IMG/VR virus record: IMGVR_UViG_3300032232_001415
Location: 64,001 to 128,000 of that record
Source of the DNA: a virus
Taxonomy: Duplodnaviria; Caudoviricetes
Direction: 5' to 3' (one strand)
Length of the DNA stretch: 64,000 nucleotides
A program made the position numbers and the translations under genes. The stretch's first letter is position 1; every line of letters begins with the position of its first letter. The notes beneath the pieces are model-generated. The model saw only the letters and a program-made list of their open reading frames with translations, did not search any database and was not told the origin of the DNA. This document shows positions 4,631 through 55,005 of this stretch, piece by piece.

Positions 4631-5046
4631 ATAATATTAAGATCAATATCATGCATGATCATCATGGAGAAGAGATTGATGGTTTTACAAACATACCACA
4701 TGATCAAATAACAAATGTTATTAATGGCACTATTAATGAAATAATTTGTAGTACTCTGGATTATTGTGAATATCAAGATAGAATCAATCTAATAATTACT
4801 CTTTGTAAAAAAATCGCAAATAATGGGACGATAACTTTCAAATTTATTAATGGAACAAAATTACTTAAAGATGCTATCAAAGGCAATTCAAATAGTCAAT
4901 ATCTGTCAAAAATTATCAAAGAGTCAAAATCATTATTTTTGGAATCGGATGTGTTAGAGATAGTATCTCAAATTAATACAGTACAAATACTTAAACAGTT
5001 TAATAGCAATGAATACTCCGTATTAGTTCTTCAAAAGAAACTATGA
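4627..5046 (+). CDS. hypothetical protein, possibly degenerate methyltransferase-like fold
   Basis: ATGA-coupled ORF. 'EIICSTLDY...LCKKIANNGTITF' loosely echoes SAM-MTase motifs. Confidence 0.45.
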   Translation: MNNIKINIMHDHHGEEIDGFTNIPHDQITNVINGTINEIICSTLDYCEYQDRINLIITLCKKIANNGTITFKFINGTKLLKDAIKGNSNSQYLSKIIKESKSLFLESDVLEIVSQINTVQILKQFNSNEYSVLVLQKKL

Positions 5047-29877: not shown

Positions 29878-32800
29878 TTAATTAATACTAATACCACCCT
29901 CAGTACTTGCTCTTAATTTATCAAACGCATTTTTAACACTATCTCTGACTAAATCTCCTATCGGTCCCTGTAATATATTCTGTAATGCTGATGCTCCATT
30001 AATAACTACTTCTACTTTATGAGTACCTTCTACATTAATTATTGGTGGTAAATTAATTTTTTGTAATTCTGATACAAAATTATTAAATTTATCAGTAAAT
30101 TGGCTCAATCCATCTAGTCCAATATTATTTGGTGCTCCATTATTAGATACACTATTTCCAGTAGTCGCACCACCAGAAACTATCTGTCTTTGATAGTCTT
30201 GTAACGCTTTAGTTGCTACTGTTATAGCATTATTAAAATCTCTAGAAGATTGTGTTAATGTTGTCAATATTTGACCAAATTCAGGAGAATCATTCTTTGT
30301 GGTATTCTGACTATTAGTTAAAGAAGGTGCCATATAACCAAGGTTAGCGTTATAATTTCTCATAGTGTTATATGTTAGTGGATCTCTATCCTGAATAGAA
30401 CTTAGTCTGCTTTGAAGACCACTTGGAAGAGAACGTCCGCTATCTTCATATTTTCTAGCAGAGACAAGGGATCTCATATCTTTATCTTCTCGATATGATC
30501 GTCTTCTTCTTTCCATTTCGTCTTGATATGCTTTTCTCTTTCTTTCTGCTTCTTCTTTGTATACTTCTCCGCCAGTAGCATACGCCCCAGCATTGATGCT
30601 CTTTAATAATGGTAGGTGTTTCTGAGTAGATTCTCTGTTTACTACAAATTCGCCCGGAGTTAACATGGCCGGAACAGTATCTGTGCCTTTTGGTTGATAT
30701 GGAACTAACGTTCCAGCAGAAGCATATACTATGCCTCCTCTCTTATATCCCATAGATTTCATTATTAGTTTTAAGGTATTATCATATAAATTATTAAAAT
30801 CATTAATATTTACTGTGTCGGCATCATTATACATTGCTCTGTCTATATCTTGTTGACTAGATCCTTTAATCAAATCCATAAATTGAACCATATTGGTAAA
30901 TACTTCCATACCGGGCATTTGTGTTTGATATAAGGTGTCGTGGCCAGTACGGCCTCTATGTAATTTTTGAACTAATGACCAACCAGCTTTGTTAGTTAAA
31001 TAATTATTCACATCAGCAGAAATATCAGTTTTCTTGCCGTATCCATCACTAATTTTTCCTTCATACATATCTTGCGTATATCCCATTCCTCCTCTAGTGC
31101 TAATGTCTTGTAGGGCGTGTGCCATTTCATGTTGAACTACTCCTTTTTGTATCTGTTCTTTGTTGAACATCATCCCATTATCTGTTTCTGGCAGACCCCT
31201 TTTTTCAGCACCAGCTCTGCCCATAAATCTTCCACGACCCCACTCAGACTCAGGAAATTCTTTTAAATCAACCCCATAATTTAATGATCCTCCAAAACCA
31301 ATACGGTTTTTATGCTTATTTTCTCCACTTTTAGACTTACTAATCAATTTTTTTGCACCCTCTGGGCTACTAGTATATGGTAGTAGCTTTTGAATGAATT
31401 CTTCTCTCGCAGCTATCATCGTATCAAAATCCGTTACGTTTATTTTAGCATATTGTCCTGCTCCCGCGAAGGTTGATTCCTGTCGATTCGGTCTAGGAGG
31501 CGGAGTATTAACAGCAGGATCACGAGGCCCCATTGTTTCGTGGGGCAAGCTCTCTGTTTTTGGATTTAATCTTTTTACGCCAGCTTCAGGATCCAGAGAT
31601 CCAATTTCTGGATCCAATATATTTTGTTTAGGTCTTAGTGACTTATTTAGTATGTCTGGTAGTTTTCTATTTTGCGGATCTAACTCATTTGCTTGTAATA
31701 GTCCATCTTTGTTGATATCCCAAAATTTAAAAATAACAGAAAGTTCATCTTTGGTTAAATATCCATCTTTTAAGCGAGTTAGATTAGTATCACTATCAAT
31801 CATGAATCCCATAATAAAGTCGGTTTTATCATATCCTTTGAATTCCTCCTTCCTTCTTTGGGTCTGTGTTTGGGCAGACCTGAACACGTTATCAAAAGAT
31901 GCTTGAGTCTTTGACATCCCCTCAGGAGTATATAATTTTTCATCTCTTATTCTTTTTAATGCTTCAATATTGTTTGGAAGTTTTGCATATTCTCCCTTCC
32001 ATCTTCCATCATAACCGGATCCGCGGTCTTTGCCAAATAGGCCCTCGCCACCGCCATTTGGTTTTGGGCCCAAAATATTTACTTTTAACTCACTTATAGC
32101 TTCTCTTCTTTCAGCTATTTCTTTTTTTCTTAGCTCTTTCTCCATTCTTCGTTTTTCTATTCCTTCTCTTTTTGGTCTTTCTGCTTCCCATTTCGCGCGT
32201 TCTCTGATGTCTCTATCAATTTTTTCTCTAAGAGCCATATCATCAGACGAAAGTCCTCCATTTTGTAAATAATTAACCATTCCACCATATTGTTTTGACT
32301 GTGGTGTTAAATGAGGTAAAGGGGGAGGTAATTGTGGAGTATTTCTTCTTCTTGTTTTCTCGGCTTCGCTATCAAATTTATTATTTACCGGAATTTGACT
32401 ATACTGAAAACGCTTGTATTCTTCTATCATATCTAGAGCAAATTTAATTTGCTCATATTCTTCTTTGTCTATCGCAGCATCTTTGCGCTGTTTTTTACCT
32501 TCCAAATAACCAGATGCTCGTAATCTTTGCTGTAGTTCGGACATTGCTCGATTACCTGTAGGAGCTAATTCAGCATTTAATTGTTTTCTTAGTCTATCAA
32601 GCATTGCTGCTTTTTGTTTTTCTTCTTGTACTTTTTCTCCTTGTATTCTTCTGTCATTTAAAGCTTTAGCTCTGGGGCTTTTAAATGGAATATAAGATCC
32701 TTCTTGAGCATAAACAATACCACCCTTATATAATGACATATAATCTTCTGGAAGAGTTATTGGCTTTTCTAAAGTTTTCTGGACTCTTCTGGTAAGATCG

Positions 32801-35800
32801 AATTCTTCTTTATCTAAAGCTTCCATTCGTCGCTTCATATGAGGAGCATCTTTATCAACGTGTCCATTATCAATCATTCTTTGATACTCTGCTCTTCTAG
32901 CTTTATAAATTTCTCTTATTAAATCTAGTGGTCTATCATGAAATTTATCTTGTGAATCTCTGGTAGCAGCATATTCTCTACGTCCTGATGTCATTATGTC
33001 AGACAGTTGTCTACTAGCCAAACTAGTCTTTAAATCTGGAGTTAATTCATCAACAGACAATGTCCTTGATTTTTCGGCAACTTCTGGCGGGAATAAAAAT
33101 TCATGCTGTTTCATTCTGCTATGCTGGGCTAGTGGATCTTTTTTCATTGAAGCATGAGACAGTCTGTATCTTTCTGCTTCTTTTATGGGCATTTCTAACA
33201 TTCTTAGTTGTAAACTCAGCTTGTCTAAATCTGTTAAATCATCTGAATCTTGGGTTTGTGATCTTGATTGAGCATAAAATCTTAATGCTTTTGGAGCTTC
33301 ACTCTCATCCATTGGGAAGAACCATCTTCTTCTGTTCGCTAAAATACCTCCTGGTTGTTCTGATAATGTTTGACTGTACTCTGATGAGCCTTTTTTGTCG
33401 CTTGGATTAGACGCTTCAACTCTCAAGAATCTAACAACTTCATCCAGTTTTGTATGTTGACCAGCGTATGGATACATTTTTTCATATCCTGGCTTAACAC
33501 GCATATTAAGAGATCTAATTTGATCAGCAGTAGAGTATTGTATTGATGGCTCGTCTATATTAGACTGTCTTCTATTTCTTCCTATGGGGGATCCTTTTTG
33601 TCTAAGATTTGATCCAACGGAGGCTAATTGAAGCATATCTTCAGCAACTTGTAATCTTCCATGAAAAGATCCTAATTGTTGACTTTCGTGGAATGGACTA
33701 AGAACCCTGTTTGGTCCTTTACCCTGAGCATGTATCGATGGTATTCCTTGTTTATCTACTACTGTCTTTGTCATAGCATCATACCAACCATTATATTTTC
33801 CACTATTTTTTCCACTATCTAACCATGTTGTATAGTTGGGTGCGAAAGGTCTCTGGTCTTGTTTATTTATAGATGGCGATTCGGTTCCTTCTGTAATCTT
33901 AACATTTTCACTATGATAATATGGTTTTCCGCCTTTTTGTAAATAATTAACCATTCCGCCTTTCTTGAATCCATAAGCTTTCATAACTTTTTTTAACATT
34001 TCTTGAGCCAAAGCATTTTGTCCAAATTTTGGATGATCCATTTTTTCAATCAGGCTAGTAAATAATTCATTTGGCTTAGCCCAAATATCATCAGAACTAT
34101 AATCTTTTTGACCAGAATAAAGATCTGGCCAACCTTTTGGATCATATAGAAAATCTTTAATATCATTTTTTATGACGCCTAACTTTCCTGCTTTGTATTG
34201 TGTTAAAGAATCTGTGCTGCGAAAAGTATGAGCACCACTAGAATGTTGTATAGCATGACCCATCTCATGTTGAACCATAGCTTCTGTGCTATTTCTATCT
34301 TTAAAAGCAAGGTGTGTTCCCCTGGGATCTAAAGTATTTGTTGTAGCTTCACCCATCGCTGTAGGATGACCAATAGCACCTGGACCCCAAGATGTTGATC
34401 TAATTCCAAAGTCTTGTTTTCTAAGAGCTAGTAATCTAGCTACTCCTTTCGGACCACTAGTATATGGCATTAATCTTGAGACGAGATCATTAGCAGATGC
34501 ATGCATTTGATCAGAATTACTAACATCAATTAATTTTCTATTGCCATAAGTTTCGGTATTTTGAGGATCCTGATCATATTTTTGTTCAGAAGGTTGCATA
34601 TCGCCAGGAAGTTGCATACCGCCAGGAAGTTGCATACCGCCAGGAAGTTGACTATTACGACTACCGCCACCAACAGGTCGGTAGTTACCATTGGCTCCTG
34701 GAAGAGTAAACCCTCCATCTTGTAGATAAGCAACTAATCCTCCCAAACTCTTATTTTGCGGTTTCATACCAGCAGCAGCTCTGTCTTTATCATTTGCAAA
34801 ACGACCAAAAGATTTCTTATCAAGAAGCAATGGTCTACCATCTGGTCTAATAATTCTAATATCACCATCAGATGTTACACTATCAAAACGACCCATAATA
34901 GATTCTTCTTCCTTACCATCATTATTTAAGTCCCATTTTTTATCACCATACCAAACTCTTTCGCCAAAAGCCAAGTTCGGCATTTCTCCTCTTCCAACAG
35001 AGCCAGATAAATATGGATACTTTTCTGCTTGTTTTTGTTTCATATCTCTTCCAGCTTTGCCAGATAAATATGGATATTTATCATCAAAATTAGGAGCACT
35101 AACCGGTGGCTTCGGAGCAGGAGTTGGTGACGGTTTTGATGGAGCACTAACCGGTGGCTTCGGAGCAGGAGTTGGCGACGGTTTTGATGGAGCACTAACC
35201 GGTGGCTTCGGAGCAGGAGTTGGCGACGGTTTTGTGTTAGTGCCAGTTGTAGGCGTGGGCGACCCCCCAATACTGCCCCATTTTACAGTATCTCTGATCG
35301 TTAAATCATCCGGCCCTCTGCCAGTTTTGGATAAATCCACCGGCTGAGATCTTCTATCTTTATCTTGTTGTTCTTTGATAGGTTGCTCTTTTAAGAATTT
35401 ATTTCTGGCTTCTATTTGCTGTTTGAGCAACATTAATCTTTGCTTCAAACTTAAGTTTTCTGGATCCGGATAGCGACCAGACAATATTTCATCTAGGGTG
35501 GGACGTCTTCCTTTTAAGAAATCTCCATCTTTATCTCTTGGCATATTATCAGCAGAAGATTCTCCAAAAAATCTTCTTTTTGCATTAATTCTATCTGTCT
35601 GTGCTTTTCTATCTTTTGTATTCCATGGATTATATTCTCCTGGACGCAATGGTCTGTCTTTACCGACACCCTGAACTTCATCAAGAAGTGACGTTACATT
35701 TTTACGAGCATAGGACTCATCATCTTGATGCATCATAGGTAGCCTATCCCATGCTTGGGAATTCATTCTGTCTTTCATTATCTTAGCATATACTGTATCA

Positions 35801-41800: not shown

Positions 41801-44800
41801 GCAGCAACTCCGGCGCCCTTTGCTCCTCCTATTGATGATCCAATATTTTCAGCAGCCATCGGAATAGCAAATGCTGCTGCTAGTCCTTTATTTTGCCAAC
41901 TTGAAGTACTGTTTCTTCTAGCTTCTATTTGATCTTCGGTTAAAACTTTACCAGTTAATGTTGTTTTGCCAGTTACAAATCCTTTAACATTCTTTAGCAT
42001 TCCTCCTGTTGTGCTAGCGGTTACCGAAGCGGCCTTGGATATTTGTTGGAAAAATCCAGCAGACTGCTTAGCGCTATTAGTCATGCTATTCACTATTTGA
42101 TCTAAACGCGCCTGAGACATAGTAGAAGAAGATCTATTAATAAAAGGCGGAGGAGCAGCAATCTGACTTCCCCTAACTCGTCCTTCTGCTGGACCAAACA
42201 ATGATTCATATTGATAAGTATATCCTATACCCCTATTTGGAGCAGAGGCTTCAAAAGCTTCTTGGCTGCCTCTAGTACCAACTTTTGTTGTATCTGCTCC
42301 TGGTCCTGTGATTCTACGATTACCTTTTACTCTGCCTCGTTCGTCAACCTCAAATCCTCCAACAACATCTCCTCTGGAGGCTGCTCTTCTTTCTAGTCTT
42401 GCTTGTTCTATATCTGCTCTGTTTACAGGTATGGCAGTAGAAGCTTTTTGTTCATCAGTTAATCTACTACCGCTAGAAGTTTTCAATTGTTGAGGAACCA
42501 TAGACGTTGGTCCCTTAGGAGGACCTTGTATACTATCTGTAACTTCTTTTCTAGCCTTATCCAAAGCTTCTCCAAGACTCATTCCTCCCTTAATTAATTG
42601 TGCCGCAAGTTTTTTAGCCTGTTGCTCAAGACCCATATCATCCAAACTTTTTGTAAGTCCTCCATCAACAAATTTTTGCACAGTACCGACACTTCCACCC
42701 TTATTAAATCCTAGTATTTTATCAGCACGATTTAATTTATTTAATCTTGGTAATCCTATACTTTGTGCCGCTCTTTTATTAATAACAAATTCACCAGGAG
42801 TTAAAAGAGCAGCAACAGTATCTTCTGAATGTCCTCCACTAGCAAATTTTCTAAACATTCCAGAATAACCCACTTTGCCGCCAGTATGAAATTTTGCCAC
42901 TTCTTTTGACTCTGGAATTCCATATTGTTGTCTAAAATATCTTTGAAATTCTTTTATGGCTTTTCCTCTGCTTCCACTATCAATGGTTCTTTTAACTTCT
43001 GTGGGGATATTAGGATCAATACCAAATATTTTTGCTGCTTTAGGCCCAATACCCATTGGGAAGTCAATTGGGCGAGTTCTTAAAGCATCATCTAATATTG
43101 TAGCATCTGCTGATCCAAAAATTTGCTCTAATAAAGCACCCTCAATATTACCTTGTCCTAATGTTTCTCGTTGTTTTTTTGTTAATTTCTTGGGAGATAT
43201 TCCCAGAAGTTTGGATGCTCCTCCTACAATTTCTTCTGTTTTTCCACTAAGATAATCAATTACATTTTGATATTGATTTGGTAAGCCTCTTTGAACTATT
43301 GAAGCATCTATTGATCTTTCTTGTCCAGATGAATCGACTCCAAGATTCCAAGTTTCTGGCCCTAATAGTCCAGTATAACCCAACGGATTTAATCCAACTA
43401 GCCCCAACTGCTGAGACGATAACACCGCACTAGTAGTATCTGATAATGCTTGTGCTGATTTGGTTCCTTGAGATTCATTAAATTTTTGTATTAAGTAATC
43501 TCTAGTAGCAAAATAATATGCTTGTTTTTCGGGATTAGTTGCTGGAGGTAAGCTGGTTTGCCAATATTTTAATTTACCTCCATCAGCAGTGTCTCTTACT
43601 GTTTTTCCTCCGAATGGACCAAAACTTGGATCACTTGGTAGTCTTTCAGATCCAAATCTTTTTAATATCTCTGTTCCTTGTGTTGGTAATATTCCAGAGG
43701 ATTTCTTGACCTGGGTGGCCTTTTCTACATTTTGTAGTATTGCCGCTTCTAGTCCAGAAGGCATCGCTGTTGAAACTCCTCCAAATTCACCACTCATCTG
43801 TTCTGATAATTGCGATGCTATAGCTTCCTTTGTTATATCTGATGGCTGTGCGGATACTGAGGATTTTCTTGACGGATCTATTCCATAAGTTTCTGGATAT
43901 TTAGCAGATAATGCTCTGATTATATTATGCGCCCTATATCCAAATGCTCCTTTAGACACTCTGTCTCTTTTATCTCTTATCTGTTTAACTTGATCAGCTA
44001 TTTCTGGATAATTCTTCTTTAAATCAGCACTAACATTACCATAAGGACCACCAGGAGCATTTGATAATATTTCTGTAACCTCAGTATTGGATCGTGCTTT
44101 ATCTTGATCAACAAATTTTTGTATTTCTTCAATTAGCATAGGAACCATAGTGCTACGATTACGTAATTGTGCTCTATTGCCCATTAATACTGATGCTATA
44201 TCAGGATGCAAGAGGCTAGTTAGTGTTTTATCATCGCCATGAAATAACGCATCTCTAACTTTGGTAGCGCTAATATCTTCTATTCTAGGAATGTCTTTAA
44301 CATCTATTCCTGCTCTTTGGTATTTACCTAATGTTTTATCATCTTTACCAGAAGTTATTGCCATAGCTCCTTTTAGTTTAGCGAATTTTCTTCTATCTCC
44401 ACTACCAGCAACTTCCATAAATTTTGATAAACCGCCAGCAGGCTGACCTTGAGTGCTAATCATAGCATTTCCAAAATTAATTTGGCTGAATAAAGCTCTT
44501 AAATCTTCTTGAAAAATACCATATCGTGCAGCATGATCTATTCCTTCTTTACCAACAACCATTGGAAGATCCGTGGCAACATTAACAACAATATCTTCTA
44601 AAGAAGCGTTTGGATTTTTAGCTAACATATTCTCTAATAAGGTATCTAATGCTCCTCTGTGTCCTCTGGTTGGAGGAGCAAAACCGCCCATATAAAATCC
44701 ACCAGCCTGAACCATTTCCGGTAATTCACTATCTTTTTTACGTCTTAAACCAAAACTATCTTTTTTTCTTCCAAGAACAGTGGCTTTTTTACCCAATTCG

Positions 44801-47800
44801 TCTCGTAGTATAGTTTCTTCCAAAGCAAAATCAGCGTCAGCTCCTCTTGTGGTTCCTGGTTTACGACCATATAAGCCTTCTCCTGTAGTATCTCTACTAT
44901 CTCTATTTAATCTAATCTGATCTTGCTCACCTCTATTATTAGAACTTAATACATATGCTCTATCAACATCTTTTAAATAAGCATCTAGCTTAGACTGACT
45001 AGCTGTGGAAGTTAATACAATGACTTCATTAACTTTTTCTATATCTTCGGGCGTTAATATTTGAGAGCGAACTGTTTTTCTTAAAGTCGCATCATCAGTT
45101 GCTCCTTTGCCAGTTGCCAAACTACTTTTTCCACTTCCAGCAGCTCCAGCAATAGCTCTAAACTTAGATAATGATCCAGTTTTTCTGGCTTTAGCAGCTA
45201 ACTCTCCAAGCTTTGTTGTATAATCACTAACATCTGTTATTCCAAGTTTTTCCATTGCTTTATCAACAATACTAGCATTTGCAGGATCTCTTAAAACATC
45301 AGTATCAACTATCCCGATATTTCTTAATACCTGTCCTCCAGCACCATAAGCTTGTCTTTTAATACCAGCATTACTGAATAATTCATTTAGCGTAGAATCT
45401 AAAATTCCCTGCATATTAGAGTCTAGTTTAGGAGCGTTCTGAATAAGAGTAGTTAAAAATTCTTCTTTACCATAATCTTCTACTTTTCCTATCGTATCTT
45501 GTCTCTGTCCACCTTTTAACAGTATCTCATTAATTTTTGGATTGATTGGTCGATACTCTCTAGCATTTTTCTTTTGTCCAGACTCTACCCACATAGAGTA
45601 TGCTTCTTTAGATAGTTCAGGATTTGCGCCTCTTCCCCCGAAGTTCATAGTTTCTTGTCTCAAATTTTGTAAAACAGTATCAAGTAAACCATTCTTATAA
45701 GAGCGTCCATAAACAACATCAGCACTATTATAACTTCCACCCAATGCATCAAATGCGTCTGCAAGACCATCATTGTCTCCATTAAATAATTGAGACACTC
45801 TTTCTTTATATTTTGTAAAACTATCTTCTGATTGGGTTCGTAAAGAATTCAATAATTGATGTGTTAATTCATGATATAAAACATTTTTTGGTTGATTACG
45901 ATCAAAAGCATTACTAGCCATCGAAACAAATCCTCGACCTGTTGATTCTAAAATGCCCTTCTTTTGCTCCATAAGACCTTTACGAGCAACTGCTTTTTTG
46001 CTCATTATATCTGATACTTTCTTACCCAATGCCATTTTTTCATCCATAGATTTATTAAAAGCCACAGTATCATAACTGAATGATCCATCTTCATATGTTG
46101 TTACTGGTGTTTTTAAGATTTTTTTGGTTTCTTTTGTTTTTTCATCTAGTAGTTTTTGGTATCCAAATAAATCTTGTTCATCAGCTTGTGTGAATCCAAA
46201 AGGTTCTAATCCTTTATCGTCATATCCCTGAGCCCCAAAAGGATCTCTACTAAATTTTCCACGATATCCATAAGTTTGTAATTTACCACCAAAATCTATA
46301 GTTTGTGGTAAAACTTTACTTAAGTCTTCTTCTGGTAATCCTATAAATTTAGCAAAATCTGATAGATTACCCAATAATTCATTACGGCTAATTTTGGTAT
46401 TAAATAAACTTAAAAATCTTTTACGATCAAAAGGTTCGCTCTGGAATTTTTGTTGTACTTCTGCAGGATCGACCGTTATTCTTTCATTGGTAGGATAAGG
46501 ATCGAAAGCATTATTTACTCTTTCTAGATCTAGTTTTTTCTGCAATTCTTTAGCATAAGCATTAGTAATACGCTTAGGAAATTTTGTCTCTCCTGTTCCA
46601 AAGGGTATAGCTTCTGCTTTTCCTCCAGCCATAAATTTTTGAATCATTCCTCCAATATTTTTCTTTTGTATTTTTGAAGATCCAGCTGGAGAAAAGTCTT
46701 TAATTGTCTCTTCAACAGTTTTTCCAGGAAATCTTTTTTTATATTCTTCTTTTGTCATTGAGCTAGCAGCGCCACTACCATATGGTACTGCTAATCCAGA
46801 ACTCATTAATTTATTAGCTAATTCATTATCTTCTAATAAAATTCTACCATATTTTTCATTTTTTTTATTTCCTGATGGTCTCAATAATTTTAATATATCT
46901 TGATTAGATTTTGTTTTATAATGATCTGTAGCAACTTCTTTAGCTTTTAAGCCCAATGTTTTTTGCCAACTATTTTTTCTTCCTCCTTTATTTGTTACTT
47001 CAAAAGCATCAACTCCTAAGAGTCTTGTTCCTGTATCAAAAGGATCATCTGTTGGAGTTACATTGATATTCAATGTATCTCCATCAGTAACTCTATTTAA
47101 GTTATTGACAGAAACTATTCCTCCAATAGCATATTTTTTTCTTTTTCTTGATGCTCCAGACTTAATAGTGCCTCCAATTCCATATTTATTCATTCTATGT
47201 AAATTACTAGCCCCTATAGTCTGCACAGCCCTTTTGCGTATAACAAATTCTCCAGGCTCTAACATTGCTGGAACAGTATCTCCATCACCGCTACCAGGAA
47301 CAACTCCTCCTCTGGCAAATTTATGTATCATTCCACCACTATTTTTTTTTGTTGTTCTTAAACCTCCTGCAAAACCGGTTGCAAATTGACCTAAAGCACT
47401 TACTCCTCTAATAGCAGTAATAGCAGTTAGTGCTGGAATAACACCCTTAGCAGCATCTGCTATTCTTATAAGTCCACTAGTTAAATCAAGAGACATTTTA
47501 ATAAAGTTTTGGAATCCACTATCATTTCCAATTGATCTAATTAAAGCTGTAAACTCTTCTCTTACTTTTGTAAGCTGAACAGCAAATGCTTGTTGTGCTG
47601 TGGTAGCATCTCTTGCCAATGAACCTTGTCCTCTTTGAGCAACTACCAATGCTTGTTGTGCTGTTGCAAATTCTTGAATAAGTGGTATAACTTTACCAAT
47701 TTGTCGGAATCCACCAAGTTCTTCAACTATTCTACTAAATCTTAGATCTCTAGGATCTAATTGACTAAGACCAGCACTTAGTCTTTTAACAGCTTCATAT

Positions 47801-48900
47801 GGCCCAACGAATTTTCCTTGTAAATCTGTTAAGTTAACTCCAAATTCTTTTAAGGCCTCTATAGTTCCGCCTCTTTGAACACGAGTAAAAATTGTTCTTA
47901 AACCAGTAGCAATAGTTTCTGCGCTTTCACGAGTTGTTGCTCTTACACTAGTAAATACTGCTAAAAATTCATTCAATGCGTCTTTACCTTCGCTAACTCC
48001 TCTGCTAGATGCGGCAAAAACACCACCGGTACGCTGAATAGCAGTAATTAAGTCGCTAGATTCAACGGCGAATTTAGCAGCAACAGCATTGACAGATCCT
48101 AGTGCTGATCCGAGATCTTTAGCACTAATACCGAACTGTCTCATAAGGGCGATACTTCCTTCTACTGTCTCACTTAAATTATCGAAAGATGGAGCAAGAG
48201 CACTTTGGGCCAAAGCTTCTAGGGCCTTTTCTGTATCTCTTGCGCTCAAACCAGCCTGAGCTAGTGTGCTGGAAACACTGATTAATTCTCTAGATGAAAC
48301 ACCAAGGCTTGTGGATAGTCCAGTAATTTGATTAACAAGCTTGCTAAGATCTGATATGGAGGTATCTGTTACCTGAGAAACTCTAACTAACTCTCTATTA
48401 AAATCAATAAAATCTTTAGATGCTGATGATATTGCATTTCCAATTTTATATACAGCCCCGGTAACAGTTGCAAATGCGGCAAATCTACGAATAGCAAGAG
48501 CGCCTTGTCTTCCAAATTCTTCAAATTCTGTTCTAGCCTGTTGTACAGCTTTTGCTGATTTATTAGCATTACTAGTCAATTGATTATTAGCACTAGCAGC
48601 ACTTTGAATAGCTCTTGGTAAAGAACTAATATTAGATACTGTTTGTTGTGCAGTTCTTGATAACGTGGCTAAACTAGTATTAGCTTGTCTAGATAATGTG
48701 GAAGTATTTCTTAGACTATCATTAAGTCTATTAAATGCTTGAGAAAGATTAGAGACATTTCTTGCCACACTAGGATCTATTTTTACACTAACATTAGCAT
48801 CAATTGTTCCTAGCTGTCTACGAATATCTGCAACTACTGTGCGAATATTTGATGGACCACGAAGATTAATTTCTGCTGTTAAATTAAATCCTTTAGCCAT
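29878..48900 (-). CDS. giant polyvalent tail tape measure protein (6340 aa) with embedded enzyme modules
   Basis: N-terminal TMP core ('ELVRVSQVT...LAQAGL...VAAKFAVESSDL...TRESAETIATGLRTIFTRV'). Follows the tail tube and chaperone genes. Six GG...DTVPAML(T/S/E)PGEFV motifs. AGGA RBS. Confidence 0.9.
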   Translation of the reverse strand: MAKGFNLTAEINLRGPSNIRTVVADIRRQLGTIDANVSVKIDPSVARNVSNLSQAFNRLNDSLRNTSTLSRQANTSLATLSRTAQQTVSNISSLPRAIQSAASANNQLTSNANKSAKAVQQARTEFEEFGRQGALAIRRFAAFATVTGAVYKIGNAISSASKDFIDFNRELVRVSQVTDTSISDLSKLVNQITGLSTSLGVSSRELISVSSTLAQAGLSARDTEKALEALAQSALAPSFDNLSETVEGSIALMRQFGISAKDLGSALGSVNAVAAKFAVESSDLITAIQRTGGVFAASSRGVSEGKDALNEFLAVFTSVRATTRESAETIATGLRTIFTRVQRGGTIEALKEFGVNLTDLQGKFVGPYEAVKRLSAGLSQLDPRDLRFSRIVEELGGFRQIGKVIPLIQEFATAQQALVVAQRGQGSLARDATTAQQAFAVQLTKVREEFTALIRSIGNDSGFQNFIKMSLDLTSGLIRIADAAKGVIPALTAITAIRGVSALGQFATGFAGGLRTTKKNSGGMIHKFARGGVVPGSGDGDTVPAMLEPGEFVIRKRAVQTIGASNLHRMNKYGIGGTIKSGASRKRKKYAIGGIVSVNNLNRVTDGDTLNINVTPTDDPFDTGTRLLGVDAFEVTNKGGRKNSWQKTLGLKAKEVATDHYKTKSNQDILKLLRPSGNKKNEKYGRILLEDNELANKLMSSGLAVPYGSGAASSMTKEEYKKRFPGKTVEETIKDFSPAGSSKIQKKNIGGMIQKFMAGGKAEAIPFGTGETKFPKRITNAYAKELQKKLDLERVNNAFDPYPTNERITVDPAEVQQKFQSEPFDRKRFLSLFNTKISRNELLGNLSDFAKFIGLPEEDLSKVLPQTIDFGGKLQTYGYRGKFSRDPFGAQGYDDKGLEPFGFTQADEQDLFGYQKLLDEKTKETKKILKTPVTTYEDGSFSYDTVAFNKSMDEKMALGKKVSDIMSKKAVARKGLMEQKKGILESTGRGFVSMASNAFDRNQPKNVLYHELTHQLLNSLRTQSEDSFTKYKERVSQLFNGDNDGLADAFDALGGSYNSADVVYGRSYKNGLLDTVLQNLRQETMNFGGRGANPELSKEAYSMWVESGQKKNAREYRPINPKINEILLKGGQRQDTIGKVEDYGKEEFLTTLIQNAPKLDSNMQGILDSTLNELFSNAGIKRQAYGAGGQVLRNIGIVDTDVLRDPANASIVDKAMEKLGITDVSDYTTKLGELAAKARKTGSLSKFRAIAGAAGSGKSSLATGKGATDDATLRKTVRSQILTPEDIEKVNEVIVLTSTASQSKLDAYLKDVDRAYVLSSNNRGEQDQIRLNRDSRDTTGEGLYGRKPGTTRGADADFALEETILRDELGKKATVLGRKKDSFGLRRKKDSELPEMVQAGGFYMGGFAPPTRGHRGALDTLLENMLAKNPNASLEDIVVNVATDLPMVVGKEGIDHAARYGIFQEDLRALFSQINFGNAMISTQGQPAGGLSKFMEVAGSGDRRKFAKLKGAMAITSGKDDKTLGKYQRAGIDVKDIPRIEDISATKVRDALFHGDDKTLTSLLHPDIASVLMGNRAQLRNRSTMVPMLIEEIQKFVDQDKARSNTEVTEILSNAPGGPYGNVSADLKKNYPEIADQVKQIRDKRDRVSKGAFGYRAHNIIRALSAKYPETYGIDPSRKSSVSAQPSDITKEAIASQLSEQMSGEFGGVSTAMPSGLEAAILQNVEKATQVKKSSGILPTQGTEILKRFGSERLPSDPSFGPFGGKTVRDTADGGKLKYWQTSLPPATNPEKQAYYFATRDYLIQKFNESQGTKSAQALSDTTSAVLSSQQLGLVGLNPLGYTGLLGPETWNLGVDSSGQERSIDASIVQRGLPNQYQNVIDYLSGKTEEIVGGASKLLGISPKKLTKKQRETLGQGNIEGALLEQIFGSADATILDDALRTRPIDFPMGIGPKAAKIFGIDPNIPTEVKRTIDSGSRGKAIKEFQRYFRQQYGIPESKEVAKFHTGGKVGYSGMFRKFASGGHSEDTVAALLTPGEFVINKRAAQSIGLPRLNKLNRADKILGFNKGGSVGTVQKFVDGGLTKSLDDMGLEQQAKKLAAQLIKGGMSLGEALDKARKEVTDSIQGPPKGPTSMVPQQLKTSSGSRLTDEQKASTAIPVNRADIEQARLERRAASRGDVVGGFEVDERGRVKGNRRITGPGADTTKVGTRGSQEAFEASAPNRGIGYTYQYESLFGPAEGRVRGSQIAAPPPFINRSSSTMSQARLDQIVNSMTNSAKQSAGFFQQISKAASVTASTTGGMLKNVKGFVTGKTTLTGKVLTEDQIEARRNSTSSWQNKGLAAAFAIPMAAENIGSSIGGAKGAGVAAGGTAFGTAVSIGSQFGPYGALVGAIAGTVLAVEGYNKGVAQAEKELSEKKIENTSAGIDKNFERLSRNAKDTAATNSVLQGIKTISEEEGKIQTKNDQLKQPGVLQKFGNYITAGYMFNTTKQNDTELGQERAATNRAGADAAIKLLSNQVTAYSGKGFGAAMGSLGPNQDAVKKQIAEGSAEFQAKNAKLERALADKYTDDATKEEIRNEQKALIETYFKQETAGLQIAAADAERAKASSKLAKAINMSTVSISRTFANMDSAVAKTSVSLQNVSSRLEDIANGTVSLKTSFNAKNIISNPNAYSSNQQSGAMRQVSGFFGSDAKFVEQLASFGGDARTIASSMAAQAQQAGTDPELAAENIQRALTDKLIKSFGDNRLTDNLRKQIASAIDAQRAKKQEGGEFDLDAFINELTGLNDLTEANKQLMESTTKIITAVEEGLNIYANAIEKSIALQSEINNLYAENIVNQKNIDIRQKELLGKEVGVSERGSARVQAAEIKAGVKTGSLNTTDLMAAYKIASQELNRVSEQKRSFESSGANLADPRVQAQLQSFIRQIADLNNQITKTKDGLKNIASNIQSSIEDAMNEIQKRVAKIETVRQASVGFAEKMVTGTPQELMDMRNSYELVTNTLNGQIRTIQQSAAANEAYSKIIKDGGTQQEAMTAAQEAYSNENKQAFATFNEMLQMMGLEGKESNQLRADMIRGMARNNGLQNDPFVTKALSLLEKDTGEDPIVKQLNALIDVQQTALSDATQALAGTLNEQQITLIQTAGEAIRKAISETTINFNTQQLREIGLGIQRPGNVMNKASGGMVYASSGKFIPRGTDTVPAMLSPGEFVVNSRATKNNLPLLNAINKNSGGPVYLKKGSSKPVTAADAAADALADMDAQPKPGKPKPTARQRAARAGSAAFSAATSSGVSGNVARNVLRTAGGAAVSAVAGENAGIVVEEIGAISDIGVTAAQSAGLPSRASGLTAQAANTAYRSGGRQGLRAAIPAANMPVTRPSVIWPNAPAPLRAPQGPAMILTEIGVQSAYEIGSAVYDTPAYIRAKNEETRQQMEEGNIGTNIVGNVFGTDMSISRPSTWIPGRGIPAAVGRTSVAIGGAASASAEAERLRQETERRNYGLPSAEIGTASGREFQMTQGFTTTAIRWARRRARVKRDIEKARNEIGKYDTDTLTFEIRFTRFAQEQGLSQSTIDQALSSNNPIGYVDKYLDKNFKEEIYNQNGERNSLFMNGSLPVHQNPYLGGSGYTDEDAKLERLTNDYIVLQKEQEIKSEQKRKEEERAHKANETFMFNTYERPGLEQNINQGIEGIQNAGQNLLNLGSSLVSTYNNVRIPSAVAKQADQYINKPIIPEKIEEVDKLARQRAYLQQQMTEARASLQRKMDDQGSVLTMADYELYGSDIKPEGRYSKENNAIILERKRADHAKKIKEIETYYGRKINEVNTQIVDTNAKFKDLSPEERKQKWDEYDKAKSDEKAKIEADKKDEARAESARRMRDRREASQAERRSLQRFKLVAGISGMNPPTDPRRAEGWRKNVLRRLQDKWNIGGLAKDNIEYFVKNYNMSADTAQAIFMPFNDRQLSAWADVMSQQGTISATDKKILKLSNDEITQLANPRDKAIAIQRRPLLERQQQALAVKSLATMSSFEKAAARGSSLTRAQQANLRMNLINRMIDKGFIKRGEDANTSAARLNNLGVSQQTAQFLFPNTVTGMVAGNFSNGGVIYASSGRLINFEPKGTDTVPAMLTPGEFVVNARATKENLPLLQSINKNKGGSVNYLADGGLASSKIRSDFSQNINNQNALKEIKDVKKLVSDTRINSISSKDTSSKIYDNNIKNQNYANPLLKNINGTTSDTKKTLDKVAASSGFSSGGVVYASSGKLINFEPKGTDTVPAMLTPGEFVVNARSTSQHLPLLKAINSSKGGDVKHLNNGGVVYAQWGLKVPTVTQGYLEDKYGGPRPKPYGPAPVVSTWYEKTFRSILGQDLFKTDKKGNNIGVDTVYAKIMKDRMNSQAWDRLPMMHQDDESYARKNVTSLLDEVQGVGKDRPLRPGEYNPWNTKDRKAQTDRINAKRRFFGESSADNMPRDKDGDFLKGRRPTLDEILSGRYPDPENLSLKQRLMLLKQQIEARNKFLKEQPIKEQQDKDRRSQPVDLSKTGRGPDDLTIRDTVKWGSIGGSPTPTTGTNTKPSPTPAPKPPVSAPSKPSPTPAPKPPVSAPSKPSPTPAPKPPVSAPNFDDKYPYLSGKAGRDMKQKQAEKYPYLSGSVGRGEMPNLAFGERVWYGDKKWDLNNDGKEEESIMGRFDSVTSDGDIRIIRPDGRPLLLDKKSFGRFANDKDRAAAGMKPQNKSLGGLVAYLQDGGFTLPGANGNYRPVGGGSRNSQLPGGMQLPGGMQLPGDMQPSEQKYDQDPQNTETYGNRKLIDVSNSDQMHASANDLVSRLMPYTSGPKGVARLLALRKQDFGIRSTSWGPGAIGHPTAMGEATTNTLDPRGTHLAFKDRNSTEAMVQHEMGHAIQHSSGAHTFRSTDSLTQYKAGKLGVIKNDIKDFLYDPKGWPDLYSGQKDYSSDDIWAKPNELFTSLIEKMDHPKFGQNALAQEMLKKVMKAYGFKKGGMVNYLQKGGKPYYHSENVKITEGTESPSINKQDQRPFAPNYTTWLDSGKNSGKYNGWYDAMTKTVVDKQGIPSIHAQGKGPNRVLSPFHESQQLGSFHGRLQVAEDMLQLASVGSNLRQKGSPIGRNRRQSNIDEPSIQYSTADQIRSLNMRVKPGYEKMYPYAGQHTKLDEVVRFLRVEASNPSDKKGSSEYSQTLSEQPGGILANRRRWFFPMDESEAPKALRFYAQSRSQTQDSDDLTDLDKLSLQLRMLEMPIKEAERYRLSHASMKKDPLAQHSRMKQHEFLFPPEVAEKSRTLSVDELTPDLKTSLASRQLSDIMTSGRREYAATRDSQDKFHDRPLDLIREIYKARRAEYQRMIDNGHVDKDAPHMKRRMEALDKEEFDLTRRVQKTLEKPITLPEDYMSLYKGGIVYAQEGSYIPFKSPRAKALNDRRIQGEKVQEEKQKAAMLDRLRKQLNAELAPTGNRAMSELQQRLRASGYLEGKKQRKDAAIDKEEYEQIKFALDMIEEYKRFQYSQIPVNNKFDSEAEKTRRRNTPQLPPPLPHLTPQSKQYGGMVNYLQNGGLSSDDMALREKIDRDIRERAKWEAERPKREGIEKRRMEKELRKKEIAERREAISELKVNILGPKPNGGGEGLFGKDRGSGYDGRWKGEYAKLPNNIEALKRIRDEKLYTPEGMSKTQASFDNVFRSAQTQTQRRKEEFKGYDKTDFIMGFMIDSDTNLTRLKDGYLTKDELSVIFKFWDINKDGLLQANELDPQNRKLPDILNKSLRPKQNILDPEIGSLDPEAGVKRLNPKTESLPHETMGPRDPAVNTPPPRPNRQESTFAGAGQYAKINVTDFDTMIAAREEFIQKLLPYTSSPEGAKKLISKSKSGENKHKNRIGFGGSLNYGVDLKEFPESEWGRGRFMGRAGAEKRGLPETDNGMMFNKEQIQKGVVQHEMAHALQDISTRGGMGYTQDMYEGKISDGYGKKTDISADVNNYLTNKAGWSLVQKLHRGRTGHDTLYQTQMPGMEVFTNMVQFMDLIKGSSQQDIDRAMYNDADTVNINDFNNLYDNTLKLIMKSMGYKRGGIVYASAGTLVPYQPKGTDTVPAMLTPGEFVVNRESTQKHLPLLKSINAGAYATGGEVYKEEAERKRKAYQDEMERRRRSYREDKDMRSLVSARKYEDSGRSLPSGLQSRLSSIQDRDPLTYNTMRNYNANLGYMAPSLTNSQNTTKNDSPEFGQILTTLTQSSRDFNNAITVATKALQDYQRQIVSGGATTGNSVSNNGAPNNIGLDGLSQFTDKFNNFVSELQKINLPPIINVEGTHKVEVVINGASALQNILQGPIGDLVRDSVKNAFDKLRASTEGGISIN
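30638..30750 (-). repeat. TMP linker motif copy 6 (GYKRGGIVYASAG...KGTDTVPAMLTPGEFVVN)
   Basis: Read directly in the translation and DNA. Confidence 0.9.
32261..32283 (-). repeat. 23-nt exact repeat in GG linker (GGMVNYLQNGG), copy B
   Basis: ttttgtaaataattaaccattcc, identical to 33935-33957. Confidence 0.9.
33935..33957 (-). repeat. 23-nt exact repeat in GG linker (GGMVNYLQKGG), copy A
   Basis: Identical to 32261-32283. Confidence 0.9.
34593..34650 (-). repeat. 18-nt tandem repeat x3.2 encoding QLPG(G/D)M
   Basis: gttgcata(c/t)cgccaggaa units. Confidence 0.9.
35093..35234 (-). repeat. 48-nt tandem repeat x3 encoding the Pro-rich linker KPSPTPAPKPPVSAP(S)
   Basis: ggagcactaaccggtggcttcggagcaggagttgg(t/c)gacggttttgat units, nearly identical. 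Confidence 0.95.
36080..36190 (-). repeat. TMP linker motif copy 5 (FSSGGVVYASSGKLINFEPKGTDTVPAMLTPGEFVVN)
   Basis: Near-identical protein sequence to copy 4. Confidence 0.9.
36530..36640 (-). repeat. TMP linker motif copy 4 (FSNGGVIYASSGRLINFEPKGTDTVPAMLTPGEFVVN)
   Basis: Read directly. Confidence 0.9.
39278..39375 (-). repeat. TMP linker motif copy 3 (ASGGMVYASSGKFIPRGTDTVPAMLSPGEFVVN)
   Basis: Read directly. Confidence 0.9.
42781..42847 (-). repeat. TMP linker motif copy 2 (FASGGHSEDTVAALLTPGEFVI)
   Basis: Read directly. Confidence 0.85.
47242..47320 (-). repeat. TMP linker motif copy 1 (FARGGVVPGSGDGDTVPAMLEPGEFVI)
   Basis: Read directly; marks the end of the N-terminal TMP core. Confidence 0.9.
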
Positions 48901-54666: not shown

Positions 54667-55005
54667 CTATGATGGATTACCACTTGGTGGAAGTATGGTT
54701 ACTGTGCCATCTTCATTCATGGTAAATTGGCCAACAACCGATGATCCTTCAGCTATAGCAGCAGCATCTATTGTGGAAATTAATTGACCTAATTTATAAT
54801 GAAGACTAAATAATTCTTTACCATTATTGCCCAAGGCTAAAGCTATTTGTTCAGGAGTAGCATTAGGATTGTCCCAAAACATTTTAGACCCTCTATTAAA
54901 TACTCCAAGCATATTATTATATATATTTTTTGCTTGTAATTTTAGTGATTCTGCAATTTCAGTTGGTGTTTTTGGTGGCTCTTTTCTGCTTAAATCTAGT
55001 GGCAT
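54667..55005 (-). CDS. hypothetical protein (112 aa)
   Basis: AAGGAG RBS; overlaps the sulfotransferase stop. Confidence 0.7.
   Translation of the reverse strand: MPLDLSRKEPPKTPTEIAESLKLQAKNIYNNMLGVFNRGSKMFWDNPNATPEQIALALGNNGKELFSLHYKLGQLISTIDAAAIAEGSSVVGQFTMNEDGTVTILPPSGNPS

Follow-up and report, generated by a model that had tools for sequence, protein, structure and literature searches.

Tape measure proteins (TMPs) carry, to our knowledge, wall-degrading domains at most; the multi-enzyme polyvalent proteins that are injected belong, as far as is known, to other proteins of the virion. In the TMP of phage TM4, an embedded 114-aa enzyme motif is dispensable and counts as ruler, its deletion leaving a tail ~20 nm shorter (PMC1796659). 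The lambda TMP, gpH, exits the tail and forms a periplasmic channel, and its residues 724-785 adjoin the Gly-rich region, known approximately, where gpH is cut to gpH* (PMC12617516). P74-26, a relative of Thermus phage P23-45, is reported to have a tail of nearly 1 µm (PMC10034513). Polyvalent proteins of phages and conjugative elements contain interspersed HExxH-plus-Glu metallopeptidase-like modules (Iyer et al. 2017, PMC5512222), and the term "tape measure" has 0 occurrences in that article. Here we compare these systems with a TMP gene of an uncultured, low-GC, large long-tailed phage, which lies in a 64,000-nucleotide window of virus record IMGVR_UViG_3300032232_001415 (positions 64,001 to 128,000 of that record).

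The gene and its backbone

A single uninterrupted reading frame (translation table 11) spans 29878..48900 on the (-) strand of the window, the strand of all features described below, and encodes a protein of 6,340 aa and 694 kDa with a pI of 9.4 and no cysteine. Its N-terminal core (aa 1-516; 47353..48900) matches PF10145 at aa 191-384 (E 1.8e-23, 83.9 bits; curated cut-off 33.2) and TIGR01760 (E 6e-25, 87.9 bits; curated cut-off 28.8), and several TMP PHROGs match aa 36-532. These profile matches identify the frame as a genuine TP901-type TMP, in agreement with a first-pass annotation that had proposed one 6,340-aa TMP with a normal core at ~47350-48900. The second backbone element consists of a variable lead-in followed by a conserved helical block (aa 2085-3172; 39385..42648). 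From aa ~2350 to 3170 this block, which 37-80 of 105 giant relatives conserve, is low in Pro and Gly and rich in helix formers, and it holds a hydrophobic Gly/Ala-rich segment at aa 2382-2400, features that fit the earlier suggestion of a second helical/TM TMP-like block; an Atlas feature search with it was uninformative. A C-terminal domain (aa 6121-6340; 29881..30540) is common to part of the family, and its profile gave nothing significant against PDB sequences.

The immediate neighbours of the TMP gene have no family match, and a block of large genes on the same strand together with upstream fibre-like proteins fits a tail module. Gene order is the same in the relative L002, including a 302-aa gene just upstream of the TMP. 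Among 50,697 phage records, no relatives at the DNA or cargo level were found, and cultured relatives of the TMP core are distant (<27% identical). As to the host, one 4.8-kb contig in the bin of a Chitinophagia MAG is the sole hint, too weak to name one.

GEFV linker modules bracket the variable segments

Six copies of a Gly-rich DTVPAMLTPGEFV module ("DTVPAMLxPGEFV"), here called the GEFV module, bracket the variable segments of the protein, with PGEFV at aa 549, 2035, 3202, 4118, 4268 and 6082. A linker HMM delimits modules 1 to 6 at aa 517-597 (47110..47352; i-E 1e-25), aa 2002-2084 (42649..42897), aa 3173-3238 (39187..39384), aa 4086-4156 (36433..36645), aa 4236-4306 (35983..36195) and aa 6050-6120 (30541..30753), respectively. 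Module 5 lies only 79 aa past module 4, and the DNA copies of the two are only 76% identical. Short double-GG linkers occur in addition at aa 750 (aa 746-764; 46609..46665; NIGGMIQKFMAGG), 4981, 5393 and 5539.

Within the gene, the linker DNA copies are 62-87% identical, and the longest near-identical pair spans 33 nt at 91%; because the DNA copies agree to this limited degree only, the linker appears to be conserved by selection at the protein level. The linker is a family-wide element with 908 copies in 226 proteins, and its copy number correlates with protein length (r 0.65). In these 226 proteins, residue 517 is roughly where the first copy begins, and a median of 157 aa separates the end of the last copy from the C-terminus.

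The linker profile scores 25.0 bits on lambda gpH 724-785 (maximum 5.4 in 2,000 shuffles) and 29.1 bits on JAWS gp21, and phrog_25241 and phrog_17300 match the linker near their profile ends. By these scores the GEFV module is homologous to lambda gpH 724-785; ordinary TMPs have a single such module near the C-terminal end. A connection between the module and cleavage is suggested by one thing, its position in lambda gpH; T5 pb2 has no GEFV module, so the known T5 cleavage cannot calibrate it. The homology to the lambda processing region nevertheless offers a concrete, repeated element for studying where and how TMPs are cut.

A constant core and swappable modules across the family

More than 200 full-length relatives of 1.9-7.9 kaa are present in metagenomes, the longest having 7,872 aa, with no cultured phage close to any of them. 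They include 105 giant relatives (3.5-7.7 kaa), and a further 2,555 shorter matches to the core were found. The core, ~500 aa, is constant across 203 full-length members and was found in ~100 of the 105 giant and in all 97 shorter relatives. When segment sharing was measured as per-residue prevalence across the family, 54% of non-linker residues fell in segments common to <20% of the 203 full-length members. In the 97 relatives of 1.9-3.5 kaa, whose cores are 53-74% identical, the HExxH module Zn1, the kinase/nucleotidyltransferase and most of module M5 (see below) are each present in at most two, and TMPs with cores identical to this degree differ ~fourfold in length through different modules.

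The first-pass annotation had suggested asking whether cassette content varies across aligned relatives between conserved linkers. Content does vary; module order is permuted in the relative P0035; and the 30% of the chain that lies close to linker marks contains 78% of 1,751 homology breakpoints. ADP-ribosyltransferases (ARTs) are placed between or after linkers in relatives: in P0105, two linkers flank a Pfam ART-PolyVal domain (E 9e-12), and P0104 has ADPrib_exo_Tox (E 8.5e-19). As far as family comparison goes, then, the TMP is a constant ruler backbone with swappable enzyme modules, and the proposed architecture, in which accessory modules that a recurring linker brackets are interleaved with a TMP backbone, stands. 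The comparison also supports reading the TMP as a polyvalent carrier, a likeness to polyvalent proteins that the ART-PolyVal and ADPrib_exo_Tox domains of relatives make concrete.

The scarcity of cysteine extends to the family: 106 giant TMPs totalling 550,271 aa have 27 such residues, compared with 0.3-3% cysteine in most neighbouring genes. Cysteine is likewise absent from lambda gpH, T5 pb2, P23-45 gp96 and a Nodularia phage TMP; its avoidance is family-wide, as in ordinary TMPs. Near-absence of cysteine, cargo included, points to storage and tail passage as a shared constraint.

Nuclease, kinase and nucleotidyltransferase modules

A staphylococcal-type thermonuclease domain (aa 598-745; 46666..47109) is indicated by phrog_452 and by a profile of 14 homologues, which matched PDB thermonuclease 2pw5 with an E of 2.1e-7 over profile positions 11-128. 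The catalytic set, with its Asp ligands of Ca, comprises D14, D16, R34, D39, E42 and R94 (DGD / R / D..E / R), which are invariant in the 14 sequences even though homologues are as low as 21-40% identical, so the thermonuclease assignment made from motifs is upheld. With the single sequence, Pfam PF00565 gave no match at E <= 0.1, and there is a weak NCBIfam match to "calcium-activated nuclease". The high Ca2+ that staphylococcal-type nucleases require speaks for a site of action outside the cytoplasm.

Of all the cargo, a kinase fused to a nucleotidyltransferase has the strongest support and the widest distribution, being found in 60 of the 105 giant relatives. It comprises a zeta-toxin/AvrRxo1-like P-loop kinase (aa 1190-1396; 44713..45333), an NMNAT/PPAT-like (HIGH-type) nucleotidyltransferase (aa 1397-1583; 44152..44712) and long helices attached to the latter in the AF2 secondary structure (aa 1584-1699; 43804..44151). 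The AF2 model of the two enzymes (pLDDT 88.9) has compact alpha/beta enzyme folds. Walker A (GAAGSGKS, aa 1252) is invariant among homologues, and the kinase model matches zeta toxin 6epg (VIA Z 8.3, borderline at ~8), 4z8q (Z 6.0) and 6eph (Foldseek E 1.5e-3), with nucleotide kinases at Z 5.5-6.5. The nucleotidyltransferase model aligns 152 of 164 residues with NMNAT 1f9a (VIA Z 11.5, rmsd 2.8), followed by 4nah (Z 11.1) and 2qjo (Z 11.0; Foldseek E 2e-4), with NMNAT, PPAT and NadM within 1 Z unit of one another as matches. The "GGFAPPTRGH" of the translation belongs to this modelled domain, and the columns of its G..PxTxGH (G216, P220, T222, G224, H225) and ISxTxVR (I354, S355, T357, V359, R360) motifs are invariant in 34 sequences. 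Since catalytic residues of both domains are invariant in homologues down to 36% identical, and the models agree, the P-loop kinase and HxGH-type nucleotidyltransferase recognized earlier from motifs are confirmed, at the level of predicted structure, as a real enzyme module with a kinase that is probably zeta/AvrRxo1-like and an NMNAT-like nucleotidyltransferase. No stand-alone kinase/nucleotidyltransferase homologues were found at 281-895 aa.

Modules recognized by motif

Three modules contain HExxH motifs (aa 1010, 4878 and 5924). In Zn1 (aa 765-1189; 45334..46608; AF2 pLDDT 91.7), HELTH and a downstream SxDxxYG are invariant in 31 sequences, and HELTH sits on a predicted helix (241-259) after a strand (227-230). 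Searches for the Zn1 fold in PDB Foldseek, VIA wide, ESM Atlas and BFVD returned nothing above noise, the VIA list being filled by a helical hairpin. Zn2 (aa 4760-4985; 33946..34623), which runs straight into a GG linker, is a paralogue of Zn3 (aa 5810-6049; 30754..31473; BLAST 4e-15), which lies just before the last linker, the usual place of Zn3-type modules in relatives. H119, E120 and H123 and a Glu ~63 aa downstream of HExxH, E186, are invariant in 13 Zn2/Zn3 sequences, of which three match Pfam eCIS_core weakly (best E 0.17). Zn1 and Zn2/3 are alignable over only 25 columns around the motif, and neither profile gave anything significant against PDB sequences. In a search of 1.84 billion cluster representatives, the Zn2/3 profile matched no more than 40 clusters, many of which belong to multi-kaa proteins. 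Because stand-alone kinase/nucleotidyltransferases were not found and Zn2/3 clusters are so few, both module types look TMP-specific and not captured from elsewhere.

Module M5 (aa 1700-2001; 42898..43803) is a candidate PD-(D/E)XK nuclease by its E..D..ExK signature, in which E226 is invariant and D247, E269 and K271 are near-invariant in 33 sequences; its profile had no match in PDB sequences, and an Atlas feature search was likewise uninformative. For the proposed three zincins and possible PD-(D/E)XK nuclease (aa ~1700-2005), the motifs hold in their alignments and a matching fold or family was not recovered; we keep Zn1, Zn2, Zn3 and M5 as candidates at the motif level. With no known fold or family matched by the HExxH modules or M5, roughly two thirds of the list of "enzymes" is motif-based.

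An EF-hand loop at aa 5728-5740 (31681-31719; DINKDGLLQANEL) follows a PROSITE-type pattern that occurs 36 times in relatives, compared with twice in shuffles. The EF-hand noted before is thus retained as a single canonical 12-residue Ca-binding loop pattern, without a Pfam match. Two other domains of the first-pass annotation were rejected. The possible ART has no Pfam match in this TMP, and the P0104 and P0105 ARTs as BLAST queries gave E >= 0.057. For the SHD1-like domain, Pfam PF03983 had no match at E <= 0.01 in aa 4600-4760, and the SHD1 of the relative P0029 (5428-5486) adjoins the BLAST-similar stretch (5511-5547) and does not overlap it.

Other inserted sequence includes variable array B (aa 3239-4085; 36646..39186), an Ala/Gly-rich stretch, an unassigned region and Lys/Glu-rich helices common to 0-11 of the 105 giant relatives; variable array C1 (aa 4307-4759; 34624..35982), with three 16-aa Pro/Thr-rich tandem repeats and short duplications; and unassigned modules split by the short GG linkers at aa 5393 and 5539 (aa 4986-5809; 31474..33945). 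Most inserted sequence has no family match, and large parts of it are low-complexity or Lys/Glu-rich helices.

Cargo and tail length

Cargo had been thought probably not all to act as ruler, a view contradicted by the TM4 deletion, by the precedent of P23-45 and P74-26 and by the volume of the tail lumen. By a volume estimate, six 694-kDa chains packed solid would still take up no less than ~400 nm of a lumen 4 nm wide, and the backbone alone as ruler would give a tail of only ~340 nm. Because exempting cargo from the ruler conflicts with the TM4 deletion and the lumen volume, a tail near 1 µm is likely by analogy. The TMP of P23-45 reaches 5,002 aa without the linker, so a long chain does not in itself indicate cargo. 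At 7,872 aa, the longest family member surpasses this TMP of the longest-tailed known virus, and the design predicts tails from ~0.3 to >1 µm within one lineage.

Proposed storage and delivery of the cargo

On balance, we favour an explanation in which a TMP backbone is loaded with enzyme cargo, the whole chain serves as ruler and the cargo is delivered into the host ahead of the DNA. From the anatomy, homologies and folds given above we infer how the chain would be stored, ejected and cleaved and what it would target. The core, helical block and C-terminal domain would assemble the tail, set its length and, on the model of lambda gpH*, form an envelope channel, with accessory modules inserted between these parts in arrays that are each bounded by a GEFV module. 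The whole cysteine-free chain would lie extended in the tail lumen, and so count as ruler, and would precede the DNA out of the tail tip, with its C-terminus leading, after which the modules would become folded and active inside the host. Because a ~4-nm lumen is too narrow for three or six folded domains of this size side by side, the chains are assumed to unfold and later refold. The ATP-dependent kinase/nucleotidyltransferase and the NAD-dependent ARTs of relatives would have to act in the cytoplasm, the envelope may be the site of action of the nuclease and perhaps of the HExxH modules, and cutting at GEFV modules, as beside their lambda gpH counterpart, may free the modules. The tail would then probably also store proteins that enter the host before DNA.

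A more specific proposal, which we offer tentatively, is that the TMP processes itself, with GEFV modules as programmed cut sites and the abutting HExxH modules as proteases, combined with unfolded storage, a tail of at least 1 µm whose length is set by cargo, and cytoplasmic effectors. In this joint and equally tentative proposal, the effector set would be lineage-specific, consisting of the nuclease, a NAD- or nucleotide-directed kinase and adenylyltransferase and, in relatives, ARTs.

The modules might instead remain outside the cytoplasm as an envelope-breaching toolkit, an enlarged muralytic set directed at peptidoglycan, capsule, matrix DNA or outer layers that would help DNA from a very long tail to cross a difficult envelope, and not serve as effectors for counter-defence or takeover. 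Known TMP enzymes are muralytic (PMC1796659), and JAWS has an NlpC/P60-like motif right after its linker. A nuclease of the Ca-dependent secreted type would suit this role, as would cysteine avoidance and an EF-hand loop in an oxidising, Ca-rich compartment, and the HExxH modules could be peptidoglycan peptidases, with the Zn3 type near the end that leaves first. We consider such a toolkit unlikely, as the top cargo, a kinase with an NMNAT-like adenylyltransferase, needs ATP and the relatives' ARTs need NAD, neither of which is available outside the cytoplasm, and as no muralytic family was detected in the TMP. It is quite improbable, too, that the protein is mostly ruler, its inserts supplying the length of a ~1-µm tail and its enzyme-like domains being non-catalytic relics or spacers. 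Each residue in the lumen adds length, as the TM4 deletion and the volume bound indicate, a cultured phage has a 5,002-aa TMP, most inserted sequence has no family match, and large parts of it are low-complexity or Lys/Glu-rich helices; however, catalytic residues are invariant at 21-40% (nuclease) and 36% (kinase/nucleotidyltransferase) identity, the models show compact alpha/beta enzymes and not a helical ruler, a ~fourfold spread of lengths produced by differing modules would be odd as mere length tuning, and relatives contain bona fide ART toxin domains.

Part of the frame, above all aa 4320-6050, could instead be a chimera of phage variants joined at linkers during assembly. The linker recurs six times, and joins there would preserve the frame. 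The arrangement of aa 4320-6050 is peculiar to this sequence; its junctions are not bridged by any relative, and no independent copy turned up in the collections searched with the exact protein, with a 40-nt probe or with peptide patterns from the region. Yet the linker DNA copies are only 62-87% identical, and their longest near-identical pair, 33 nt at 91%, is short for mis-joining by an assembler; single alignments to independent assemblies span the junctions of aa 1-4310, of Zn3 with linker 6 and of linker 6 with the C-terminus; more than 200 independent assemblies yield multi-kaa TMPs of the same design; and GC content is smooth along the gene. We therefore regard an assembly artefact as very improbable, and return to the cargo-loaded TMP in the comparison that follows.

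Comparison with known systems

The nearest likenesses for an enzyme domain inside a TMP are JAWS gp21 (cluster K), in which the GEFV module lies directly upstream of an NlpC/P60-like motif ("KPYVWGG..DCSG"), and the mt3 motif of TM4 gp17. These mycobacteriophage TMPs combine one module with one muralytic enzyme in ~1.2-1.3 kaa, whereas the 6,340-aa TMP has six modules and >10 inserted segments, and its enzymes are a nuclease and ATP-dependent nucleotide enzymes in place of wall hydrolases. Lambda gpH, at 853 aa, has one GEFV module, no enzyme and no cysteine. P23-45 and P74-26 share with our phage a multi-kaa TMP without cysteine; the P23-45 TMP differs in having neither a GEFV module nor HExxH and in being more uniform, with a helix-former fraction of 0.56 compared with 0.44, and its record notes one metallopeptidase domain.

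Outside TMPs, effectors are attached to or stored in a fired tube in evolved VgrG/PAAR proteins of type VI secretion systems (T6SS) and in the tube-lumen cargo of extracellular contractile injection systems (eCIS). The TMP cargo resembles these by analogy only, and both kinds of machine differ from the phage tail in being contractile and in lacking DNA. The closer likeness is to polyvalent proteins, which also place many unrelated enzymatic domains on one giant polypeptide, here a nuclease, a kinase and a nucleotidyltransferase, with HExxH modules interspersed in the manner of their metallopeptidase-like modules and ART-PolyVal in relatives. Domain families typical of polyvalent proteins were not detected in the 6,340-aa TMP itself, ARTs being confined to relatives, and the carrier differs, since in this family it is the TMP in the tail lumen. 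If the explanation that we favour is true, the tail lumen is a cargo hold, and TMP enzymes and injected polyvalent proteins merge in one design.

A giant tape measure protein in one open frame

The giant tape measure protein (TMP) is encoded by a single open frame of 6,340 codons on the minus strand (window 29878..48900), within a block of very large genes that all lie on the same strand; at about 36% GC, chance cannot explain so long a frame. Residues 1-516 constitute a TP901-type tape measure domain, matched by PF10145 (E 1.8e-23) and TIGR01760 (E 6e-25), and several TMP PHROGs cover residues 36-532. The first-pass annotation had described the protein as a TMP built as an array of enzyme cassettes, and the motifs on which it drew were all recovered by motif search: six Gly-rich 'DTVPAMLxPGEFV' modules (hereafter GEFV linkers; PGEFV at aa 549, 2035, 3202, 4118, 4268 and 6082), short double-GG linkers (aa 750, 4981, 5393 and 5539), HExxH motifs (aa 1010, 4878 and 5924) and a Walker A loop (aa 1252). 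Between aa ~2350 and 3170, helix formers are abundant and Pro and Gly scarce, and within this helical block aa 2382-2400 are hydrophobic and rich in Gly/Ala.

A chimeric assembly could also produce so long a frame. The arrangement of aa 4320-6050 is found in this sequence alone, with no copy recovered by exact-protein, 40-nt probe or peptide-pattern look-ups; single alignments from independent assemblies run across every junction between aa 1 and 4310 and across the final two. The six linker copies are 62-87% identical as DNA and thus offer little purchase for mis-assembly, and the GC profile is smooth across the gene, which together make a chimera unlikely. The same divergence implies that selection on the protein maintains the linker module. 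Near-perfect repeats in the gene are confined to three 48-nt tandem repeats (94-100% identical; window 35093-35236) encoding a Pro/Thr-rich 16-mer and three 18-nt repeats (window 34587-34650) encoding QLPGGM, both of which are likely sites of length variation.

Upstream, the 848-aa (window 55727-58273 (-)) and 1,883-aa (window 58275-63926 (-)) proteins, which contain repeated domains, strongly match baseplate wedge, virion structural and tail fibre PHROGs (E down to 1e-95). A protein of 243 aa encoded amid the structural genes (window 54996-55727 (-)) weakly matches a PHROG annotated galactose-3-O-sulfotransferase (E 2e-5) and could be an enzyme that modifies the virion or host surface.

The linker resembles a processed region of lambda gpH

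A profile built from the linker copies and run on the family proteins yields 908 copies in 226 proteins, with one to nine per full-length protein. Copy number correlates with protein length (r 0.65), the first copy begins at about residue 517, and a median of 157 residues separates the end of the final copy from the C-terminus. The profile also scores 29.1 bits against residues 760-837 of mycobacteriophage JAWS gp21, where the module lies immediately upstream of a 'KPYVWGG..DCSG' motif that we take to be NlpC/P60-like, and 25.0 bits against residues 724-785 of lambda gpH (maximum 5.4 in 2,000 gpH shuffles). The lambda stretch belongs to the Gly-rich portion close to the C-terminus in which gpH is processed to gpH* (roughly residues 1-710), and is not resolved in cryo-EM maps (PMC12617516). 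Additionally, two TMP PHROG profiles have the module close to their C-terminal end, and it occurs in 220 cultured-phage records, in annotated TMP genes throughout among the matches listed; the linker profile did not find it in P23-45 gp96 or T5 pb2. By sequence, the linker is a known TMP element that has been multiplied in the giant TMP. The 3,310-aa TMP of the cultured Baltic cyanophage Nodularia phage vB_NspS-kac68v162 (MK605246; L006 9265-19197) carries the GEFV module twice (aa 906-946 and 984-1027), making this phage a possible laboratory model for the module.

Enzyme modules and candidate enzyme modules of the giant TMP

The thermonuclease, P-loop kinase and HxGH-type nucleotidyltransferase (NTase) proposed earlier are borne out. 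A 14-sequence profile of aa 598-745 matches PDB thermonucleases over the whole domain (E 2e-7), with Ca-ligand and catalytic residues invariant. For aa 1190-1700, a confident AF2 model (pLDDT 88.9, pTM 0.83) was compared with known folds, also using Foldseek. Model residues 208-394 resemble NMN adenylyltransferase 1f9a (Z 11.5, 152 aligned, rmsd 2.8), PPAT (Z 11.1) and NadM (Z 11.0), and residues 4-205 resemble zeta toxin 6epg (Z 8.3) and AvrRxo1 (Z 6.0), placed ahead of nucleotide kinases (Z 5.5-6.5); all 34 kinase/NTase sequences compared keep Walker A, PxTxGH and ISxTxVR unchanged. The nucleotidyltransferase assignment of the second half is firm and the zeta-like subtype of the kinase tentative. 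That an AvrRxo1/zeta-like kinase is joined to an NMNAT-like domain may point to NAD or nucleotide-sugar chemistry.

For the three proposed HExxH zincins, the motifs are invariant, and neither fold nor family matches accompany them. Zn1 (aa 765-1189) is modelled very confidently (pLDDT 91.7) and found no fold match in the four libraries searched; its invariant HELTH is the sole support for a peptidase, and the invariant SxDxxYG downstream resembles the aspzincin motif. Zn2 and Zn3 are paralogues (E 4e-15) in which HExxH and, about 63 residues further on, a Glu are invariant, and each runs straight into a 'KGGxVY' linker at its end. They have no significant family or PDB match, and fit the minimal description of the polyvalent-protein metallopeptidase (PMC5512222). 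Searched against 1.84 billion representatives, their profile hits only 40 clusters, of which many belong to multi-kaa proteins, where the module usually lies about 170-280 residues from the C-terminus, just ahead of the last linker. In M5 (aa 1700-2001), the possible PD-(D/E)XK nuclease, an E..D..ExK pattern is conserved, and profile and Atlas searches added nothing to it. A canonical EF-hand loop is indeed present at aa 5728, and its pattern is over-represented among family proteins (36 matches vs 2 in shuffles). The suggested ART and SHD1-like domains were found in the giant TMP neither by Pfam search nor, for ART, by comparison with the ARTs of two metagenomic relatives, P0104 (ADPrib_exo_Tox, E 8.5e-19) and P0105 (ART-PolyVal between two linkers, E 9e-12).

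A constant core with a variable load

No close relative was found among cultured phages. In metagenomes, 105 relatives measure 3.5-7.7 kaa and come from contigs as long as about 250 kb, and another 2,555 shorter proteins match the TMP core; the largest family members are P0042 (7,724 aa) and P0246 (7,872 aa). A TMP core 57% identical to ours is encoded on a 4.8-kb contig (L005, RFVO01000110.1) assigned to a Chitinophagia MAG, the sole and weak hint of a Bacteroidota host.

Conservation along the giant TMP is strongly modular. Among the 105 giant relatives, core and linkers are common to about 90-101, the kinase/NTase to 60, the nuclease to about 46-57, the helical block to 37-80, Zn1 to 31, and aa 3250-4000 and 4300-6050 to 0-15. 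In 97 relatives of 1.9-3.5 kaa, with core identity of 53-74%, the core, helical block, linkers and C-terminus are all retained, and Zn1, kinase/NTase or most of M5 is present in at most two. Across 203 full-length members, the core spans about 500 residues regardless of total length, and 54% of non-linker residues lie in segments common to <20% of members. Module order also varies, as P0035 places kinase, NTase and M5 upstream of Zn1. Stretches near linker marks make up 30% of the chain and contain 78% of 1,751 homology breakpoints, an enrichment expected in part because the linkers are themselves conserved islands.

Cysteine exclusion

The giant TMP contains no cysteine in 6,340 aa, and the 106 giant TMPs contain 27 in 550,271 residues (94 have none), whereas most other genes of the window encode 0.3-3%. 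Lambda gpH (853 aa), T5 pb2 (1,219 aa), P23-45 gp96 (5,002 aa) and the Nodularia phage TMP (3,310 aa) likewise have none, and JAWS gp21 (1,277 aa) has one. Cysteine exclusion thus looks like a general TMP property, inserted enzymes included; to our knowledge, it has not been described as a general rule. Since the inserted enzymes are also cysteine-free, we infer that the constraint is the carrier's, whether extended storage and passage, contact with an oxidising compartment, or the two together. The opposite is seen downstream in the block of same-strand genes: a 2,629-aa protein (window 10245-18134 (-)) has 78 cysteines (3%), and cysteine makes up 6.5% of the 168-aa protein next to it (window 9738-10244 (-)); a short unknown-function PHROG match to the smaller protein was the only one for either.

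Ruler, cargo and delivery

The first-pass annotation held that the cargo is probably not all ruler; three lines of evidence point the opposite way. Loss of a 114-residue enzyme motif from the TM4 TMP shortens the tail by about 20 nm, as a ruler model predicts (PMC1796659). The Thermus phage P23-45 TMP has 5,002 aa, and the tail of its relative P74-26 is reported as nearly 1 µm long (PMC10034513). Finally, three to six solid-packed copies of the 694-kDa chain are calculated to fill 200-400 nm of a 4-nm lumen, and a ruler made of nothing but the backbone, with its roughly 2,270 residues, would yield a tail of only about 340 nm; the lambda tail tube holds six gpH copies (PMC12617516). Most likely, the giant TMP is both ruler and cargo. 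Its phage would have a tail of about 0.95-1.1 µm, and tails across the lineage would range from about 0.3 µm to over 1 µm; at 0.15 nm per residue, P0042 and P0246 would imply tails of about 1.2 µm, beyond any described virus tail.

In the giant TMP, the TMP backbone is combined with repeats of a gpH-type module and with true nuclease, kinase and nucleotidyltransferase domains, whose presence varies among close relatives. The chain would be extended in the tail lumen and exit C-terminus first, ahead of the DNA, as TMPs do, and its modules would then fold and act in the host. Because a kinase/NTase needs ATP and the relatives' ARTs need NAD, some of the chain, if not all, would have to reach the host cytoplasm; for a Ca-type nuclease, the periplasm or the exterior of the cell is the better setting. 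The GEFV modules may also be cleavage sites, as suggested by the place of the module in gpH, next to the cleavage region, and by the HExxH modules abutting linkers.

Our literature searches turned up muralytic motifs in TMPs, and polyvalent proteins whose carriers are not TMPs, but no description of TMPs loaded with arrays of non-muralytic enzymes. The interest of the giant TMP lies mainly in its family size, the homology of its linker to gpH, and its testable predictions on tail length and processing.
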